Assembly: GCF_055900595.2 (NCBI RefSeq)
Contig: NZ_CM148325.1
Length of the DNA: 64,000 bases
Reading direction: 5' to 3' (one strand)
Shown here: one piece after another, positions 13,456 to 24,610 of the stretch
How positions within the stretch are numbered: the stretch's first letter is position 1
Layout of the letters: the number at the start of each line of letters is the position of its first letter
The notes under the pieces: model-generated
What the model saw: only the letters and a program-made list of their open reading frames with translations
The model's database searches: none
What the model was told of the DNA's origin: nothing
Position numbers and translations under genes: made by a program

Positions 13456-15690
<2,235 letters not shown>

Positions 15691-15964: not shown

Positions 15965-16858
<894 letters not shown>

Positions 16859-16904
16859 TTACCTCATCAATCGCTTGTAGTTATATGTTGTGTTGTGCAC
16901 ATCT

Positions 16905-16940
16905 ATCCGTTTAGACGTCCAGATGTAAAGATGAAGGAAA
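16905..16940 (-). promoter_or_regulatory. metF promoter with tandem MetJ operator repeats (met boxes)
   Basis: agacgtcc agatgtaa agatgaag tandem 8-bp repeats matching the AGACGTCT met-box consensus, 50-80 bp upstream of metF. Confidence 0.6.
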
Positions 16941-17150
16941 AGCTGAAGGGCGTCAACCGAAAAATGACCAATGATGGTGAGGAAAAATCAGGGAAGATGA
17001 AAAAAACTCATCTTAATTAGAGGTAATAAAGAGATTTCTTTATAGCGCAATCAACCTCACTCGTTTTGACTGATATACAGGCAACACAACGGCACCTGTT
17101 CTCATTCGAAAAACAACGCCCTGCCACCAGATGGTGATGCTAAAGCATCT

Positions 17151-17181
17151 GATTCGGCCTGCGCTCTCGTGTAGGCCGAAT
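17151..17181. terminator. Stem-loop downstream of island nucleotidase paralog 1; possible terminator near the left island boundary
   Basis: attcggcct…aggccgaat inverted repeat. Confidence 0.3.
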
Positions 17182-17237
17182 ACAGAATCTGCGAAATCAA
17201 CTGGTAACAAACAGTAGAGTCAACTCAGTGCGTACTT

Positions 17238-18797
17238 TTATTTAATATCTTTCACGCGCATACCGTTGATCTGTTCATCCGTGATGGTGTTACCCGCTTT
17301 AAAGTAATCAACCACCGCGTGATAAACGTAATAACCGCCCGTCGTATTGCGCGCTTTACCCTCGGTAAACGCGGTAAAACCATCTCCACCATCAGCAAGG
17401 AAACTCTGAGTAGCAATGTGGTAAACCGTCGCATCTTCAATCGGTTTGCCATTCAGCGTCAGCGAGATAACCCGCTGACCAACCGGCTTGCTGCTGTCGT
17501 ACTTCATTTCCAGGCCTTTCGATACCTGTAAAACGCCATTACTTAAACTTGCGCCGTGTTCCATCAAACCGCGTAATTGTTTACCCGTGAGTTCCATCGT
17601 CACCAGTTCGTTGGGGAACGGGAAGGTACTGATGACGCCACCCATCGTAATTGCACCCGCCGGGATCTCATTGCGAATCCCACCAGAGTTGGTTAACGCC
17701 AACTGGGTATTTTTACCCGCCGCTACCAGTAAAGCGTCCGCCGCCAGGTTCCCCAGGGATGCCGATTCACCATAGGCACGTTTTAATTCAACTGGCGATT
17801 GCGCCACCGTTTGCTGCACGACTTCATCCAGCTTTTTATTCCAACTATCAATCACCTGTTTTGTTTGCGCATCGGGCTTCCACTCGTCGGCGTAAAGGGT
17901 TTTAAGCTCGAAGTTTTTCACCGTAAAAGTGTGCGGTTTCTCTTTGTAGTCGAGAACCAGTTTACCCACATCAATCCCACCGCTGTCAGTGGAGAGGATG
18001 AGCGTATTGCCGACTTTAATCGGTTCCGGCGTACCCACATGTGCATGCCCGGTGATCAAAATATCCAGCCCTTTCACCTGACTTGCCGTCTGAATATCTT
18101 TATCCAGTGCGCGGCGCACATCTGTGCCCCCCATACTGGACTGGCGGGCCGGAACACCTTCGTGAATCAGCGCAACGGTCAAATCAACCTTGCCTTTGAG
18201 TTCATCGATATAACGTTGTAGCCATTTAATTTCATCACGCGCCTCAATACCCACTCGCGTTGCCGCAGATACCGTATCATTAAAGGCAAATACACCGTGC
18301 AAACCTATAACACCAATTTTCACGCCGTCTTTTTCAATAATGGTATATGGCTTATCCCAGAATGATTTACTGCTGTTCTGATAAAAAACATTACCCTGCA
18401 CAATCGGGAATTGTGCCTGACTCAACTGTAATAACGTATTGTCCCAGCCGTGATCAAATTCATGATTACCTATAGTGGCCGCATCGAACGGCATGGTATT
18501 CATAATATCGATAATCGCCTTGCCTTTAGTCAGGCTGCTGATATACGGCCCGGTAAAATAGTCACCCGCATCAAAAAACCAGGTCGCTTTGTTTTTAGCT
18601 TTTTCTTGTTTAACAAGCGTAGTGATATTTGCCCAGCCGCCAATATCCCGTTTACCCTCAGCAATCCACGGCACTTTATAGGGCTCTACATGTGCGTGGA
18701 GGTCATTGGTATAAATAATGGTGACATCTTTGGCGCAGGCCCAAAACGGCAGTGTTAATGCGATACCCGCAGCAAGCATTTTAATTTTCATAAACAA
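17238..18797 (-). CDS. Island paralog 1: secreted 5'-nucleotidase/UDP-sugar hydrolase-like metallophosphoesterase (UshA family)
   Basis: N-terminal signal peptide; metallophosphatase motifs DLHAH, DAGDYF, GNHEFD, HEG, GHAH; C-terminal 5'-nucleotidase-like domain; no K-12 counterpart at this locus. Confidence 0.8.
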
Positions 18798-18850
18798 TCC
18801 CTTCCAGTGAGATAAAGGATTGCTACATTACGTTCTGAAAGGCTTTTTTA

Positions 18851-18866
18851 TGTGAGAATACTCACA
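18851..18866. promoter_or_regulatory. Perfect CRP-binding palindrome in the divergent intergenic region between island paralog 1 and the Zn-ribbon gene
   Basis: tgtga-gaatac-tcaca equals the TGTGA-N6-TCACA CRP consensus, with an A/T-rich flank. Confidence 0.55.
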
Positions 18867-18923
18867 TCCAGAGGCAATAACTGTAGGACAAAATCGACGA
18901 CCTTATGAAATCGTTGGTGATAT

Positions 18924-20051
18924 ATGTCAAATCTGTTTGCGATTAATGTCTGTAAAACGTTCGGTTGTCGAAATTTGGGATTGGCCTCATCGGAAGATTA
19001 CAGTTGGCCAGACTATAAACTGGGTTTTCCGGCACTGCACTGCCAGGCATGCGGAAGTTACCCCCCTTTGTTTGATGAACAACAATTTCGTGACTGGTTG
19101 TCAGTTCACATGACTGCGTGTGCCATAGAAACAGGGCATTTTTGTCCATCATGCTATTGTAAAGAAAAGATTTTTTATGGCCACAACCCGCATGGAACAC
19201 AACGCGTTCAATGCCGTTCATGCAAAAAAGTCTGGACTCCGAAACAGCAGCCAGCAAGAGAAATTACGTATCCCCAGTCCATTGAAACCGTTCAACTGTT
19301 CATGCCCTTTCAAGGAGCCAGCGCACTACAAAAGCTCTATGTTTTAGTCAGTCTTGACGCCACTCGTGGCAACATCCTTCATCTCTCCACGAATTATACG
19401 CAACATCAGACAGGAGACAGTCTGCGGTACAGTTACAGAGGCAATACAGAACCAACTGAGCACCATAGCGATATTGTGCAGAGGGTAGATATGCGTGAAG
19501 CGCAATTCTTGCGCCGGAGCCAGTTCGATGAAATTCAGTATGGCAGTGCTGTGCTCAAGCGCAATGGCAAGGGAGCCATACTACGCCCGGTTATCACGGC
19601 TCACGGGCATTTCAGAATACTGAAAATCCGCTTTCCACATGTCAAAACGCATATCATTTCACACGAATGTTTTCTGAGAGGCGCAATTATTACAGCCTGG
19701 GCAGATCAGTTCCGCCAACAACAAGGCGAACTTTGGTTCGTAGAAGAAGAAATCAGCGACCGTAACGCTGATATTCCCTGGCATTTTCAGGGAACGACAT
19801 ACCATGGTTGGTGGCAAAATCAGTGGCAACGCTGGGGGCAGGGGAATAACAGCAAGATGGTCTGCCTGCTCACAGGAGTCTCCTTAGAAAGGGGCGCAAA
19901 TGTTTCTCTGGCAACCAGTCGTTGCTTTATCACATGGCTGACAGACCAACACGACTTTACCCAAAGCGCGTTATTATCCGCAGGTCGCGTAACGAAAATG
20001 CTGACCTCACTGGCGTTAAAATACAATGAATCGCTCACTCCATCTTGTTAG
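18924..20051 (+). CDS. Cys-rich Zn-ribbon protein resembling an IS1595/ISXO2-family transposase; catalytic integrity uncertain
   Basis: FCPSCYC…(12 aa)…RVQCRSCKKVW follows the CPxCG…RYxCKxCxKxF transposase Zn-ribbon pattern; a downstream stretch (THIISHECF…FVEEEISDRN) loosely resembles the end of a DDE domain. Confidence 0.55.
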   Translation: MSNLFAINVCKTFGCRNLGLASSEDYSWPDYKLGFPALHCQACGSYPPLFDEQQFRDWLSVHMTACAIETGHFCPSCYCKEKIFYGHNPHGTQRVQCRSCKKVWTPKQQPAREITYPQSIETVQLFMPFQGASALQKLYVLVSLDATRGNILHLSTNYTQHQTGDSLRYSYRGNTEPTEHHSDIVQRVDMREAQFLRRSQFDEIQYGSAVLKRNGKGAILRPVITAHGHFRILKIRFPHVKTHIISHECFLRGAIITAWADQFRQQQGELWFVEEEISDRNADIPWHFQGTTYHGWWQNQWQRWGQGNNSKMVCLLTGVSLERGANVSLATSRCFITWLTDQHDFTQSALLSAGRVTKMLTSLALKYNESLTPSC

Positions 20052-20169
20052 TCAATACACTCGACAAACGACCATAAATTAATGGGATCACTATTTCTCA
20101 TTTAATTAAATATATGAATGTATGACTGAAAAATATAATCACAGTCAATGTTTAATTAATAACATTATT

Positions 20170-20185
20170 TGTTACTAAGATCACA
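20170..20185. promoter_or_regulatory. CRP-like site (one mismatch) in the AT-rich promoter region upstream of island paralog 2
   Basis: tgtta-ctaaga-tcaca, about 95 bp upstream of the ATG at 20281. Confidence 0.3.
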
Positions 20186-20280
20186 TAATACTTTCCTGAC
20201 CTATGCTTACATAAAAATAAGACACGGAGTTCCTTTTATTTAAATAATTCAACCAATGTAACAACCCCTATCAAGGAGGG

Positions 20281-21834
20281 ATGATGAGAACTGTATTTAC
20301 GACTTTATCAGTCATATTCAGCGTGATGTTTTCTCACAGTATACTAGCTCAGGACGTTACTATTTATTATACGAATGATATTCACGCACATGTCAATCCG
20401 GCAAAAATTCCCGCTGTTGATAAGAACAGACTTGTAGGTGGTATGGCTAATATTGCAGGCATCGTTAATGAAGCGAAGAAAAAAAACAAAGATGTCTTTT
20501 TCTTTGATGCAGGCGACTATTTTACCGGTCCGTATATCAGTACCCTGACCAAAGGTGAAGCTATTATTGATATCATGAACACCATGCCCTTTGATGCGGT
20601 GTCCGTTGGTAATCACGAGTTCGATCACGGCGTGCCCAATATGGTATCTCAGTTATCAAAAGCAAAATTCCCCATTCTGCTGGGAAATATTTACTACACC
20701 GATACAAATAAACCAGTTTGGGATCATCCGTGGACTATTATCGAAAAAGATGGTTTAAAGATTGGTGTGATTGGATTGCATGGTGCATTCGCTTTCTATG
20801 ATACAGTCGCGGCAAAAGCACGTGAAGGCGTAGAAGCCAGAGACGAAATTAAATATTTAAATAAAGCACTTGCAGAATTAAAAGGTAAAGTCGACATTAC
20901 CGTTTTGCTAATTCACGAAGGTGTTCCGGCGCGTCAATCAAGCTTTGGTAGTAAAGATGTGGAGCGGCTACTACAGGCAGATATTGAGACAGCTAAAAAA
21001 GTGAATGGTGTTGATGTCTTAATTACCGGTCACGCACATGTCGGAACACCGCAACCAATAAAAGTTAATAACACATTAATTGTATCTACCGATGCATACG
21101 GCACCGACATCGGAAAACTTGTGCTTGATTACAATCCGAAAACGAAGAAAATTGATAGTTATAATGGTGAGTTAATCACCATCTTCGCAGATCAATTTAA
21201 ACCTGACACCATCGTTCAAAATACTATCGATAAATGGAGTGCAAAGCTTAACAAAATAACACAGGAAGTTGTCGGCCATTCTCCCGTAGTTTTAACACGT
21301 GAGTATGGCAGTTCTTCTTCTACCGGTAACCTTATTCTTGATGCAATGATGGAAAAAACACCAGATGCCATTGCCGGATTTCAAAATAGCGGTGGGATGC
21401 GAGCTGATTTTCCTAAAGGTGATATCACGCTGGGAGATGTTATTAGCACATTCCCCTTTAATAATGACCTCATCGAGATGGATTTGACGGGCCGCGATCT
21501 CAAATCGTTGATGACGCATGCAACCAATCTAACTAACGGTGTGTTACAGGTTTCAAAAAGCGTTGCGGTTGTCTATGACAGCAAAAAACCACTGAACCAA
21601 CGGTTAATCTCTTTCACCATTAACGGCAAACCCGTGGAAGATAATCAAACATATCGTATTGTCACGCACTCCTTTTGTGCCAGTGGTGGTGACGGTTTTG
21701 AAGCATTTTTGAATGGAAAAAATGTGAAGACGATACCGGGAACAACCTCGGCGGAATCTATCATCGATTATTTCAAAAATCATAAACCTGTCACCCCAGA
21801 CTTAACTAAACGAGTAATGGACGTCGCCAAATAA
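20281..21834 (+). CDS. Island paralog 2: secreted UshA-family 5'-nucleotidase-like metallophosphoesterase
   Basis: Signal peptide; DIHAH, DAGDYF, GNHEFD, GHAH motifs; AT-rich codon usage. Confidence 0.8.
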   Translation: MMRTVFTTLSVIFSVMFSHSILAQDVTIYYTNDIHAHVNPAKIPAVDKNRLVGGMANIAGIVNEAKKKNKDVFFFDAGDYFTGPYISTLTKGEAIIDIMNTMPFDAVSVGNHEFDHGVPNMVSQLSKAKFPILLGNIYYTDTNKPVWDHPWTIIEKDGLKIGVIGLHGAFAFYDTVAAKAREGVEARDEIKYLNKALAELKGKVDITVLLIHEGVPARQSSFGSKDVERLLQADIETAKKVNGVDVLITGHAHVGTPQPIKVNNTLIVSTDAYGTDIGKLVLDYNPKTKKIDSYNGELITIFADQFKPDTIVQNTIDKWSAKLNKITQEVVGHSPVVLTREYGSSSSTGNLILDAMMEKTPDAIAGFQNSGGMRADFPKGDITLGDVISTFPFNNDLIEMDLTGRDLKSLMTHATNLTNGVLQVSKSVAVVYDSKKPLNQRLISFTINGKPVEDNQTYRIVTHSFCASGGDGFEAFLNGKNVKTIPGTTSAESIIDYFKNHKPVTPDLTKRVMDVAK

Positions 21835-21868
21835 AATATCATTTATCAGTCTATTTATTTAACAAGGA

Positions 21869-23494
21869 ATGCGAATGAAAACAGTGCAGCGTACTTTACT
21901 TGCCGCAACATTGCTGACTATTTTTTCGGTCTCAGCCATGGCGCAGGATGTCACGATTATTTATACCAATGATCTTCACGCTCATGTGGATTCTTATAAA
22001 GTGCCGTATATCGCAGACGGAAAACGCGACATTGGCGGCTTTGCCAATATATCTACTTTAGTAAAACAAGAGAAAGCGAAAAATAAAGCCACCTTTTATT
22101 TTGATGCTGGAGACTATTTCACCGGCCCTTATATCAGCAGTCTGACAAAGGGCGAAGCAATAATTGACATTATGAATACCATGCCTTTTGACGCAGTATC
22201 AATCGGTAATCATGAGTTTGACCATGGCTGGGATAATGCCCTGCGACAATTAAGCAAAGCGAATTTTCCTGTTTTATTGGGCAATGTTTATCATAAAGAG
22301 AGTGAGAAACCCTTCTGGAACAAGCCCTACACCATCCTGGAAAAAGATGGCATCAAGATTGGTATTATTGGGCTACACGGCGTATTTGCATTTAATGATA
22401 CGGTCTCGGAGCTCTCTCTCCAGGGACTCGATAATGACAATAATAACCGCTTTGATAAATCTTCCGAGACCCTTAAGAATCAGGGGATTGAAGCACGTGA
22501 TGAAGTGAAGTATTTGCAGCATTATATCGACGAGTTACGTGATAAGGTTGACCTCACTGTGGCGCTGGTTCATGAAGGCGTTCCGGCGCGTCAGTCCAGC
22601 ATTGGCAATACAGATGTTAGACGCGCTCTTGATAAAGATATTCAAACCGCTAGCAAGGTGAAAGGATTGGATATTCTGATTACCGGGCATGCCCACGTCG
22701 GAACGCCAGAGCCAATCAAAGTCGGCAACACCTTAATCCTTTCAACTGATAGTGGCGGTATCGATATTGGTAAATTAGTCCTTGATGTCAACCCTACAGC
22801 TCGTACCCATAAAATGAAGAGCTTTGAGCTGAAAACAGTTTATGCCGATGAATGGATACCCGATCCAACGACACAAAAAGTTATCAATGGCTGGAATAAA
22901 AAACTGGCGGATATTGTACGCCAACCAGTGGGTGAATCATCGATTGCATTAACTCGCGCCTATGGTGAGTCATCGCAACTAGGCAACCTGTTTACCGATG
23001 CAATGCTTGTCGCTGCTCCGACTGCACAGATTGCATTGATAAACTCCGGCAGCTTACGTGCGGATATAAATGCAGGCACGATTACCTTTGGCGACATTAC
23101 CAGTACATTCCCCTTCAAGAATGAACTTACTGAAATGGATCTCAGCGGTAAGGATCTGCGTAACCTACTGGAACACGGGGCATCGCTTACCAATGGCATC
23201 CTGCAAATGTCAAAAGGCGCAGAAATGCGCTATACCCCGCAGAAACCAGTAGGTCAGCGCATAGTATCTTTTAAAATTAATGGTGAAGAGATCGTTGATA
23301 CGAATATTTACCATGTTGCAACAACGACTTTCCTTGCACTGGGGGGCGATGGTTTTCTGGCATTCAAAGAAGGGAAAAATGTTCAGGTCCGCGCCGGAAA
23401 TAACATGTCCGATGTCGTGATCGATTATTTGAAGAAAGGCCACAAGATTACGCCTGCACAGGTAAATGAAATGCGGGTGGACGTTAGCAAATAA
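21869..23494 (+). CDS. Island paralog 3: secreted UshA-family 5'-nucleotidase-like metallophosphoesterase with a ~24-aa Asn/Asp-rich insertion
   Basis: Signal peptide; same motif set; closest by eye to paralog 1 but with an extra ELSLQGLDNDNNNRFDKSSETLKN segment. Confidence 0.8.
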   Translation: MRMKTVQRTLLAATLLTIFSVSAMAQDVTIIYTNDLHAHVDSYKVPYIADGKRDIGGFANISTLVKQEKAKNKATFYFDAGDYFTGPYISSLTKGEAIIDIMNTMPFDAVSIGNHEFDHGWDNALRQLSKANFPVLLGNVYHKESEKPFWNKPYTILEKDGIKIGIIGLHGVFAFNDTVSELSLQGLDNDNNNRFDKSSETLKNQGIEARDEVKYLQHYIDELRDKVDLTVALVHEGVPARQSSIGNTDVRRALDKDIQTASKVKGLDILITGHAHVGTPEPIKVGNTLILSTDSGGIDIGKLVLDVNPTARTHKMKSFELKTVYADEWIPDPTTQKVINGWNKKLADIVRQPVGESSIALTRAYGESSQLGNLFTDAMLVAAPTAQIALINSGSLRADINAGTITFGDITSTFPFKNELTEMDLSGKDLRNLLEHGASLTNGILQMSKGAEMRYTPQKPVGQRIVSFKINGEEIVDTNIYHVATTTFLALGGDGFLAFKEGKNVQVRAGNNMSDVVIDYLKKGHKITPAQVNEMRVDVSK

Positions 23495-23506
23495 TAAAAA
23501 AATTAT

Positions 23507-23541
23507 AATGCCATTCATTCACTGAATGGCATTATTTTTCT
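23507..23541 (+). terminator. Rho-independent terminator or attenuator between paralog 3 and the Tsx-like gene
   Basis: aatgccattcattcactgaatggcatt hairpin followed by atttttc. Confidence 0.55.
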
Positions 23542-23572
23542 CTAAATCAACAATAAATAATGAGATATATTT

Positions 23573-24433
23573 ATGTGTATAAAAAAGCACGGGATAGCTT
23601 TATCGATTCTATTAATACCTTGCATTGGAAACGCTCAGGAAATTAAAAGTGAGGAAGGCTGGTTACATCAAAGCTTGAATGTCATTGGTCGCACAGACTC
23701 TCGCTTTGGCCCAAGGCTGACTAACGACCTCTACCCTGAATATACTGTAGCAGGAAGAAAAGACTGGTTTGATTTTTATGGTTATGTTGATCTACCAAAA
23801 TTCTTTGGCGTCGGCAGTCACTATGATGTTGGGATCTGGGATGAGGGCTCACCACTATTTACGGAAATAGAACCTCGGTTTTCCATTGACAAATTGACCG
23901 GATTAAATCTTGCGTTCGGCCCTTTTAAAGAATGGTTCATTGCAAACAACTATGTCTATGATATGGGTGACAACCAGTCATCCCGGCAAAGTACATGGTA
24001 TATGGGGCTTGGTACAGATATCGACACGGGTCTACCAATTAAGCTTTCTGCCAATATATACGCCAAGTATCAGTGGCAAAACTATGGTGCCGCTAATGAA
24101 AATGAATGGGACGGATATCGATTCAAAATAAAATATAGCATTCCTCTTACCCATTTATTCGGAGGGCGATTGGTATACAATAGTTTTACTAACTTTGATT
24201 TTGGCTCCGATCTTGCGGACAAATCACACAATAATAAACGAACCAGTAATGCTATTGCTTCAAGCCATATCCTTTCCCTGCTATATGAACACTGGAAATT
24301 TGCATTTACACTACGTTATTTTCACAACGGTGGACAATGGAATGCTGGGGAGAAAGTTAACTTCGGAGATGGTCCATTTGAATTAAAAAACACAGGATGG
24401 GGAACCTATACTACTATTGGTTATCAATTTTAA
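23573..24433 (+). CDS. Tsx-like outer-membrane nucleoside-specific channel (Tsx/OmpK family paralog)
   Basis: Signal peptide; long collinear similarity to E. coli Tsx (…KDWFDFYGY…[17 protein letters not shown]…[16 protein letters not shown]…[26 protein letters not shown]…); C-terminal aromatic residue. Confidence 0.8.
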
Positions 24434-24610
24434 ATCAGGTGATGTTTTAGATATTTTTACTTAATGCCATTTTGTAATTGTCATAAATAACTTCACCATT
24501 CACACTGTGAATTCATCGCTCAACACAAAAGCCCCCTTATTACCGGGGCACTGACCAAAGGCAAAATGACAATCAATCACCACCTCCGCAGGAGGTGGTT
24601 TAGAGGTGAC

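Follow-up and report, generated by a model that had tools for sequence, protein, structure and literature searches.

A putative nucleotide-scavenging gene cluster between metF and metL of Escherichia coli: composite history and a candidate regulator of apparent transposase descent

Which functions are encoded in the long DNA segment that separates metF from metL in some Escherichia coli genomes, and how did this segment arise? The question is raised by a 64,000-nucleotide stretch of contig NZ_CM148325.1 (RefSeq assembly GCF_055900595.2), which is called here the window. In the list of its open reading frames, katG (13456-15675, minus strand) and metF (15965-16855, minus strand) lie on one side, while metL (24650-27082, minus strand) and then metB lie on the other. 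An initial annotation, made from the letters of this DNA, had put about 7.8 kb between metF and metL against a few hundred bp in K-12, and the measured distances agree with it, being 7,794 bp in the window and 348 bp in K-12 MG1655. Five genes are located in the gap. Three of them encode paralogous phosphoesterases (nt1, nt2, and nt3), one encodes a Tsx-like channel (tsx-like), and one, ORF2, encodes a cysteine-rich protein. We think it somewhat more probable than the sum of its rivals that these genes form a catabolite-controlled (cAMP-CRP) periplasmic module for scavenging nucleotides as nucleosides, served by an outer-membrane channel of its own and including a candidate regulator of transposase descent.

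Our first step was the phosphoesterases. The nt1 gene (17238-18797, minus strand; the RefSeq start is the ATG at 18791) encodes a metallophosphoesterase/5′-nucleotidase of the UshA superfamily with predicted export, and nt2 (20281-21834, plus strand) and nt3 (21869-23494, plus strand) encode its paralogues, also with predicted export. The nt2 protein matched the Pfam domains Metallophos (E = 3e-12) and 5_nucleotid_C (E = 4.7e-36). The nt1 and nt3 proteins had the same NCBIfam family matches as nt2, and their orthologues carry both Pfam domains in precomputed annotation. The NCBIfam matches of all three comprise the 5′-nucleotidase half of YfkN, UshA, SoxB, Nt5e, and NadN. The nt1 protein is 56% identical to nt2 and 68% identical to nt3, and identity of the three to K-12 UshA is 25-27%. 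Alignment with K-12 UshA revealed that D41, H43, D84, N116, H117, D120, H217, and H252 are invariant in all three paralogues. The C-terminal nucleotide-binding residues R410, F429, N431, F498, and D504 are invariant as well; R375 and R379 of UshA fall in a poorly aligned stretch and are excluded from this statement. Q254 of UshA is His in all three paralogues (GHAH vs. GHSQ).

Each of the three proteins begins with a basic-hydrophobic segment that ends in A-x-A (ACA/KD, ILA/QD, and AMA/QD) and resembles a signal peptide. For the orthologue of nt1, the construct in the PDB starts to align at residue 21. This construct is the chain of PDB entries 3IVD and 3IVE, labelled "Nucleotidase", to which nt1 is nearly identical (residues 21-519, 1105 bits) and with which nt2 aligns at 635 bits. 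We take these entries, whose ligands the match output does not list, to come from structural genomics and to show CFT073 c4898 bound to uridine and to cytidine. Judged by their sequences, the three proteins are true members of the UshA/5′-nucleotidase superfamily, yet they are no orthologues of UshA. The initial description of three paralogous UshA-family phosphoesterases is borne out by these domains and identities, and the signal peptides described there have their counterpart in signal-peptide-like N-termini. The possibility that the reading frames lie outside the 5′-nucleotidase family was examined with hidden Markov models (HMMs); family membership held and the catalytic residues tested are intact. 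The nt3 protein also has an Asp/Asn-rich insertion of about 23 residues, LQGLDNDNNNRFDKSSETLKNQ (residues ~186-208, window 22420-22490), which is found in none of nt1, nt2, and UshA. In the metallophosphatase domain the insertion separates two conserved blocks, GLHG and EARDE.

The second component is the channel. The tsx-like gene (23573-24433, plus strand) encodes a Tsx paralogue, a predicted outer-membrane nucleoside channel. It scored 491.8 bits against NCBIfam PRK15106 (cut-off 311; residues 2-286 of 286) and shares 60% of its residues with K-12 Tsx in a full-length alignment of 287 residues. Its predicted membership of the Tsx family is solid, just as had been assumed at the outset. In strain CFT073 the corresponding gene, c4894, was among the 25 genes most induced under overexpression of the PapB-family regulator TosR, with a log2 fold change of 3.3 (PMC5956150). 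This induction may be a sign of silencing that normally keeps the AT-rich part of the island inactive.

The third line of evidence is the control region. The nt1 and ORF2 genes diverge from a 126-bp region (18798-18923) that contains a perfect CRP palindrome, TGTGAGAATACTCACA, at 18851-18866. Scored against the consensus TGTGA-N6-TCACA, it is the sole perfect match in the window, which holds 6 sites with at most one mismatch against 1.8 expected by chance. Measured from the centre of the palindrome, the start codon of nt1 (ATG at 18791) is 67 nt away and that of ORF2 65 nt. This placement would fit two back-to-back class II promoters with leaders of about 25 nt; a consensus scan detected no strong -10/-35 pair around the site. 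In 28 loci representing more than 10 genera, the TCACA half never varies, and the TGTGA half is kept in 18 of them. The palindrome noticed initially is thus real and conserved across genera. The spacer as a whole has a mean column identity of 82% across five genera, and it includes two invariant blocks, TTACGTTCTGAAAG (18828-18841) and AAATCGTTGGT (18908-18918). Both blocks recur in the 28 loci, as does CAAAATC, which lies with the second block directly 5′ of the ORF2 start. We also considered a CAACGA...TCGTTG RNA hairpin in the ORF2 leader and rejected it, its left arm varying without compensation while the right arm is invariant.

How could these components work together? The three phosphoesterases, Sec-exported and equipped with two-metal centres, would remove phosphate from nucleotides reaching the periplasm. 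Their divergence makes it probable that they differ in the bases or ester types that they accept. A second Tsx channel would raise the permeability of the outer membrane to nucleosides, and the core NupC/NupG transporters with the deo, udp, and cdd genes would complete nucleoside use. Divergent transcription of nt1 and ORF2 would start from the 126-bp region with its central CRP site, and from this site and its conservation we expect expression to need cAMP-CRP. ORF2 would act as the DNA-binding regulator of the module itself, as its fold, zinc ribbons, and gene neighbourhoods suggest. Nucleotide scavenging, which the initial annotation had also favoured, is the most economical reading of the cluster, and the same proposal has been published (PMC12928451).

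What kind of protein, then, is ORF2? The gene (18924-20051, plus strand) encodes 375 residues, and the cysteine-rich product is predicted to be cytoplasmic, with two zinc ribbons and an RNase-H-like fold. Pfam identified no transposase domain in it and offered only an InsA-type zinc ribbon at E = 0.14. The NCBIfam IS1 transposase model matched at E = 7e-4 over its first 41 positions, and PHROGs gave only a weak zinc-ribbon "transposase" match. When the family profile was compared with PDB sequences, only spurious C2H2 zinc-finger matches were returned. The family is small, with 122 clusters among 1.84 billion representative proteins at E ≤ 1e-3, and its full-length members at about 25-35% identity have 400-520 residues.

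Conservation within the family was read from an alignment of 42 sequences. Invariant or nearly invariant are two Cys4 sets, C10, C15, C40, C43 and C77, C97, C100 (with C74 in close homologues), and also R198, H229, H247, W297, and W301. Distant relatives have about 45 extra residues after the second ribbon, which are absent from the enterobacterial proteins. Zn_ribbon_InsA was detected at E ≤ 1e-3 in 8 of the 42 members, and three distant members passed the cut-off of NF050000, the IS1/IS1595 N-terminal zinc-binding domain. A comparison of the family with IS1 InsAB′ by hhalign gave a probability of 96.2% (E = 2.3e-9) over InsA residues 4-88, which comprise the zinc ribbon and a helix-turn-helix. 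The AlphaFold model built with the family alignment has a predicted local distance difference test score (pLDDT) of 93 and a predicted template modelling score (pTM) of 0.93, and its predicted fold is RNase-H-like, of the DDE-transposase/integrase type.

The Pfam DDE domain was found in none of the 42 members. The canonical catalytic positions were assigned from secondary structure rather than from a superposition, and they fall in beta-1 (119-128), at the end of beta-4 (218-222), and in the helix that follows beta-5 (247-258). With this placement the alignment points to no conserved acidic residue at beta-1 or after beta-4, and only E248 appears to be kept. Terminal inverted or direct repeats of at least 10 nt were detected neither at the island ends nor in the ORF2/nt2 spacer. 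Judging by the lack of terminal repeats and the fixed syntenic position, ORF2 is related to IS1/IS1595-type transposases but domesticated and no longer mobile. On the evidence of alignment and predicted fold, it is no working transposase and is a catalytically dead descendant of one of this type. Of the initial label, IS1595-like transposase, the ancestry survives in the zinc ribbon and the RNase-H-like fold, while mobility does not, given that the DDE triad and terminal repeats are missing.

If ORF2 is a former transposase, then we can ask: Which genes does it accompany? In every orthologous locus with upstream sequence (more than 40 loci, at least 38% identity) ORF2 is divergent from a UshA-family gene, and the gap between the blast matches of the two is about 125-165 bp regardless of chromosomal site. 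Among nine distant relatives (about 25-40% identity), seven adjoin genes of nucleotide or nucleoside catabolism. Their neighbourhoods include a UshA-like nucleotidase; a porin with an e(P4)-type 5′-nucleotidase lipoprotein and a class II phosphodiesterase; nupC-deoD; deoD-tal-deoB-nupC in Motilimonas; and tal-add-deoC-deoA-deoB-deoD with a Bmp-type nucleoside ABC transporter downstream. Two neighbourhoods of another kind were seen. One distant relative stands after genes for a Tsx-family channel, a sulfatase, and a radical-SAM maturase (locus L057, 2519-7263), and in Enterobacter hormaechei ORF2 is closely followed, on its downstream side, by a gene for an arylsulfotransferase (locus L006, 11282-12808). 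A link to sulfate esters is possible for part of the ORF2 family.

InsA of IS1 is a DNA-binding repressor. This precedent, together with the fold, the zinc ribbons, the gene neighbourhoods, and the conserved spacer, makes ORF2 a candidate for the dedicated regulator of the cluster, a role to which we give nearly, but not quite, an even chance. We hold a wider proposal a little more tentatively still: that ORF2 represents an undescribed transcription-factor family, derived from an IS1/IS1595-type transposase and dedicated to the control of nucleotide and nucleoside catabolism in Enterobacterales, Vibrionales, and their relatives. Its targets would be UshA-like and e(P4) nucleotidases, the class II phosphodiesterase, Tsx, nupC, and deo. 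What was once the active-site pocket may have come to sense an effector, either a nucleoside or a sugar phosphate. If this is true, ORF2 offers a clear and accessible example, from bacteria, of a transposase domesticated as the regulator of one pathway, and as a regulator it would be the missing control element for nucleotide scavenging in Klebsiella, Citrobacter, and Enterobacter. What makes the family conspicuous is that a conserved, immobile, degenerate IS1-type relative accompanies non-homologous enzymes of a single pathway across distant bacteria.

Several observations weigh against a scavenging module under control of ORF2. None of the three phosphoesterases reached an equivalog cut-off in NCBIfam. 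The UshA equivalog NF007109 gave 150.6, 165, and 156.3 bits for the three proteins against a cut-off of 600. Two other models, SoxB (E ~1e-44) and the trifunctional one of the YfkN type (E ~1e-58), match them at least as strongly as UshA does. On the side of the regulator, the window ORF2 is gapped across the helix-turn-helix that distant members share with IS1 InsA, and this makes the argument for DNA binding weaker for its subfamily. Two of the nine distant relatives have no nucleoside genes alongside, one of them being the relative at L057 that adjoins a Tsx-family channel and the other showing no evident connection to the pathway. The invariant blocks TTACGTTCTGAAAG and AAATCGTTGGT have no extra copies 5′ of nt2 or tsx; the numbers of matches are those of chance, and each block occurs once in the window. 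The promoter positions are consensus guesses only. Finally, our literature search found no experimental work on the cluster apart from the induction of c4894 by TosR.

The scores just given bear directly on one alternative, in which the module is still catabolic and the ester chemistry is different. The enzymes would then act on nucleoside 3′-monophosphates or 2′,3′-cyclic monophosphates from RNA decay, on nucleoside diphosphate sugars, or on a SoxB-like substrate. Besides the missing equivalog match and the strength of SoxB and the YfkN-type model, the identity of 56-68% among three paralogues suggests diverged specificities, and the linkage of one distant ORF2 relative to a sulfatase and a Tsx-like channel points the same way. 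We nevertheless consider this alternative unlikely, because the pair of base-stacking Phe residues of the UshA nucleotide site is conserved with its Arg, Asn, and Asp, the best YfkN match falls in the 5′-nucleotidase half (model positions 629-1097), the crystals of the nt1 orthologue (3IVD/3IVE) are taken to contain pyrimidine nucleosides, and a Tsx channel is linked.

A second alternative seems to us improbable to the same degree. Here the three enzymes would be ectonucleotidases directed at the host or at signals, degrading ATP, ADP, AMP, NAD, or cyclic (di)nucleotides and so blunting immunity or interfering with signalling, like AdsA, CdnP, or enzymes of the NadN type, and the cluster would serve extraintestinal pathogenic E. 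coli in its fitness and not in its nutrition. Such a role would agree with the presence of all five genes in the classic phylogroup B2 strains CFT073, 536, Nissle 1917, and those of sequence type 95 (ST95), with the finding that the cluster is common to model pathogenic strains (PMC12928451), and with the significant partial NCBIfam matches to Nt5e, NadN, and a multifunctional cyclic-nucleotide phosphodiesterase. However, the signal peptides appear plain and no surface anchor was seen, which suggests action in the periplasm, and nt1 and ORF2 are syntenic in the plant- and environment-associated Kosakonia, Phytobacter, and Superficieibacter. The CRP site, the link to Tsx, and the deo and nupC neighbourhoods of ORF2 relatives point to catabolism, and PADLOC assigned none of the five proteins to a defence family.

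The idea that ORF2 is an active or recently active transposase, with the nucleotidase and Tsx genes as cargo of a mobile element, could draw on its transposase-type fold and zinc ribbon and on the ORF2-nucleotidase modules at differing chromosomal sites (Enterobacter, Klebsiella sp., E. albertii) and, in a few cases, on plasmids of Salmonella and C. freundii, but it is largely refuted and hardly credible in view of the lack of conserved Asp residues on beta-1 and after beta-4 and of a Pfam DDE domain, the lack of repeats of at least 10 nt flanking the island, the single cluster at metF-metL with its deep cross-genus synteny, the small number of family clusters, so unlike a spreading insertion sequence, and the unlike ORF2 copies in the two two-module genomes of the species scan (E. 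coli and Escherichia sp.; 72% and 67% to the query in E. coli).

With scavenging retained as the preferred reading, it remains to trace the origin of the locus. One genome per species was scanned with the ORF2 alignment, followed by tblastn with the window proteins. The order metF - nt1 (minus) - ORF2 (plus) - metL was detected in Citrobacter (C. freundii, C. youngae, C. braakii, C. portucalensis, C. werkmanii, and others), in Klebsiella oxytoca, K. pneumoniae ATCC 13883, and K. spallanzanii, in Kosakonia, Phytobacter, Pseudocitrobacter, Superficieibacter, and Kluyvera, in Salmonella enterica subsp. arizonae, where ORF2 is truncated, and in Escherichia whittamii. Compared with its syntenic counterparts in Citrobacter, Klebsiella, Kosakonia, and others, nt1 has an identity of 86-98%. 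In these loci the 3′ end of ORF2 usually abuts or overlaps the 3′ end of metL, which is also the arrangement of a short form of the locus, with nt1 and ORF2 only, in E. coli. Such synteny across genera indicates that the nt1/ORF2 pair is ancestral at metF-metL and has been lost by K-12-like genomes.

How much of the window, then, has been added? In a sliding comparison with short-form E. coli, nt1 had 89-100% identity, and identity was about 75% from position ~18865, at the CRP site, through ORF2. This break indicates that the added unit consists of a divergent ORF2 allele plus nt2-nt3-tsx in the lineage of the window and in phylogroup B2. There ORF2 would have been replaced by the divergent allele, which would have brought nt2-nt3-tsx with it. 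Among the loci sampled, this arrangement was found in no other genus and is confined to E. coli. The opposite course, in which the short form is a deletion derivative of the five-gene form, was considered and rejected, the short form with its ORF2 end abutting metL being the arrangement of other genera. The initial annotation had proposed a single horizontally acquired insertion of about 7.4 kb. The single insertion has to be given up, as nt1 and ORF2 are syntenic in many genera of Enterobacteriaceae and only the ORF2 allele with nt2-nt3-tsx was added. Horizontal acquisition fits in part: patchy presence and low GC content speak for it, and the occupation of the same site by nt1/ORF2 in related genera speaks against it. 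A locus composed of an old enterobacterial part and a lineage-specific addition alters the reading of metF-metL presence and absence in pangenome studies.

Smaller irregularities were seen within the genes. A tract of about 700 bp in nt1 (17965-18700) is 95-100% identical to the short-form E. coli allele (locus L003), with 89-97% in the nt1 flanks, and looks like the product of recent recombination. In ORF2 a patch at 19065-19265 has only 74-78% identity to strain 536 against 93-96% in its flanks.

Related modules were also found at other sites. ORF2 is divergent there from nt1-nt2-(nt2′)-tsx-nt3 in Enterobacter, Klebsiella sp., E. albertii, Citrobacter sp. wls619, and E. coli SCPM-O-B-8794. 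This second, larger module, ORF2 / nt1-nt2-nt2′-tsx-nt3, occurs in some Escherichia, for example beside kdsA in E. albertii (loci L009 and L010), and has up to four nucleotidase paralogues. E. coli SCPM-O-B-8794 (loci L028 and L022) has the larger module plus the short form at metF-metL. Pairs resembling nt1/ORF2, at 76-81% nucleotide identity, are plasmid-borne in a few Salmonella enterica (80-194 kb) and in C. freundii (425 kb), suggesting that the pair can travel though ORF2 looks catalytically dead. Two further "plasmid" matches are records of about 4.9 Mb and are probably chromosomes. In Citrobacter, genes for a LysR-family regulator and a carboxymuconolactone-decarboxylase-family protein lie between metF and nt1 (C. 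freundii, locus L005, 6897-8272). Similar extra spacing between metF and nt1 in other Citrobacter and Klebsiella loci indicates that the metF side is variable between genera too.

The junctions of the segment, whose mapping the initial annotation had proposed, can be placed as follows. The region upstream of metF (16856-17005) is common to K-12, with about 99% identity over these first 150 bp. The left boundary of the variable segment is at 17005/17006, and from 17006 to the metL stop the window and K-12 are unrelated. K-12 has 198 bp of its own in this place. We rejected this K-12-specific sequence as a remnant of the island, for it has only chance 9-14-mers in common with it and is missing from every other locus compared. 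RefSeq annotates a 44-residue hypothetical protein in the K-12 spacer (K-12 locus L004, 4076-4210; the window equivalent is ~16931-17005). Its reading frame spans the exact point of divergence between K-12 and the island, so that the C-terminus differs between the two locus types.

The GC content falls to 34% at 20000-20499, while metF and metL have 51-57%. Across 20000-24500 as a whole it ranges from 34 to 46%, compared with 51-61% for the flanking genes, in accordance with the AT-rich stretches noted initially. The AT-rich spacer 5′ of nt2 (20052-20280, GC 34%) contains a CRP-like site with one mismatch (20170-20185) and, by consensus scan, a sigma-70-like promoter match (20219-20248), both candidates of predicted function only. 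Between nt3 and tsx a palindromic hairpin (23505-23535, ATAATGCCATTCA...TGAATGGCATTAT) has a perfect 13-bp stem with T runs flanking both sides, and the consensus scan rated it terminator-like on either strand. It might uncouple tsx from nt2-nt3 by terminating or attenuating transcription, or it might bind a protein. The GC-rich hairpin between the convergent tsx and metL genes (24579-24599), whose palindromic stem is visible in the sequence and which gave a terminator-like match on the minus strand only, is likely a shared terminator. A search of 16800-24700 against Rfam at E ≤ 1 identified no RNA family.

The distribution of the cluster in the species was counted in 5,426 complete E. coli genomes. 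The nt1 and ORF2 genes were present in 1,844 of them (34%). The five-gene form with nt2-nt3-tsx occurred in 658-660 (12%), always on the chromosome, and its carriers include CFT073, 536, Nissle 1917, the type strain ATCC 11775, and ST95 strains. The short form accounted for about 1,180 genomes, and approximately two thirds of all genomes, including K-12 and the sampled O157:H7, have none of the cluster. The view of the cluster as accessory and missing from K-12-like genomes agrees with this mapping. With strain E200086 the window allele has 100% identity; with the B2 version, for which strain 536 stands here, it has about 94%.

The cluster is already public in three guises. It corresponds to CFT073 c4894-c4898, in the order tsx-like (c4894), nt3 (c4895), nt2 (c4896), ORF2 (c4897), and nt1 (c4898); the c4894 tag is confirmed by a published study (PMC5956150) and the others by gene order. 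It is represented by PDB entries 3IVD and 3IVE. In the avian pathogenic E. coli BEN2908 it is GR31, the region from metL to metF, described in PLoS One in 2026 (PMC12928451). GR31 was complete in the model extraintestinal and adherent-invasive strains compared there, and a role in nucleoside scavenging or processing was proposed in silico (PMC12928451). The cluster by itself therefore adds little: its genes are annotated, part of it has solved structures, and a paper has already read it as a nucleoside-processing module. What interest it still has is biochemical, lying in the substrates of the three paralogues and in a possible benefit to B2 strains in urine, blood, or gut.

How does the locus compare with known systems? 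The predicted nt1, nt2, and nt3 proteins share with E. coli UshA the two-domain fold family, the metal ligands, the catalytic His-Asp pair, the base-stacking Phe pair, and a predicted export of the same type. They differ from it in their identity of 25-27%, in scores of 150-165 bits against the required 600, and in the replacement of Q254 by His. The nt1 protein is the orthologue of the protein in 3IVD/3IVE, for which our literature search found no published biochemistry, whereas nt2 and nt3 are distinct paralogues without structures of their own. The paper on GR31 differs from the present analysis in that it contains no discussion of ORF2, the CRP site, the ancestral nt1/ORF2 synteny, or the short form.

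As a system, the cluster resembles the UshA/Tsx/NupC/NupG system of K-12 under CRP and CytR in having a Tsx-family channel and a CRP site. CRP sites are present in the K-12 promoters of tsx, udp, cdd, and deo. In K-12, however, ushA and tsx are unlinked, while here three paralogues are clustered in tandem with a channel of their own. In contrast to the CRP/CytR regulon, no tandem CRP arrangement of the CytR type was found in the cluster, and a transposase-derived gene occupies the place where a regulator would be expected.

This gene has its closest known counterparts in InsA and InsAB′ of IS1 and in IS1595. The likeness concerns the second zinc ribbon of the ORF2 family, to which distant members add the helix-turn-helix, and the predicted RNase-H-like C-terminal domain. 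In contrast to these elements, ORF2 has no DDE domain detectable by HMM, none of the catalytic acids except one Glu, and no terminal repeats. It is fixed in synteny beside catabolic genes at one or two places per genome and possesses an extra N-terminal Cys4 ribbon. InsA, itself a DNA-binding repressor, would by analogy provide a precedent for a regulatory ORF2. A further parallel, drawn as an analogy and with no claim of homology, is offered by the eukaryotic FHY3/FAR1 proteins, transcription factors domesticated from transposases of Mutator-like elements.

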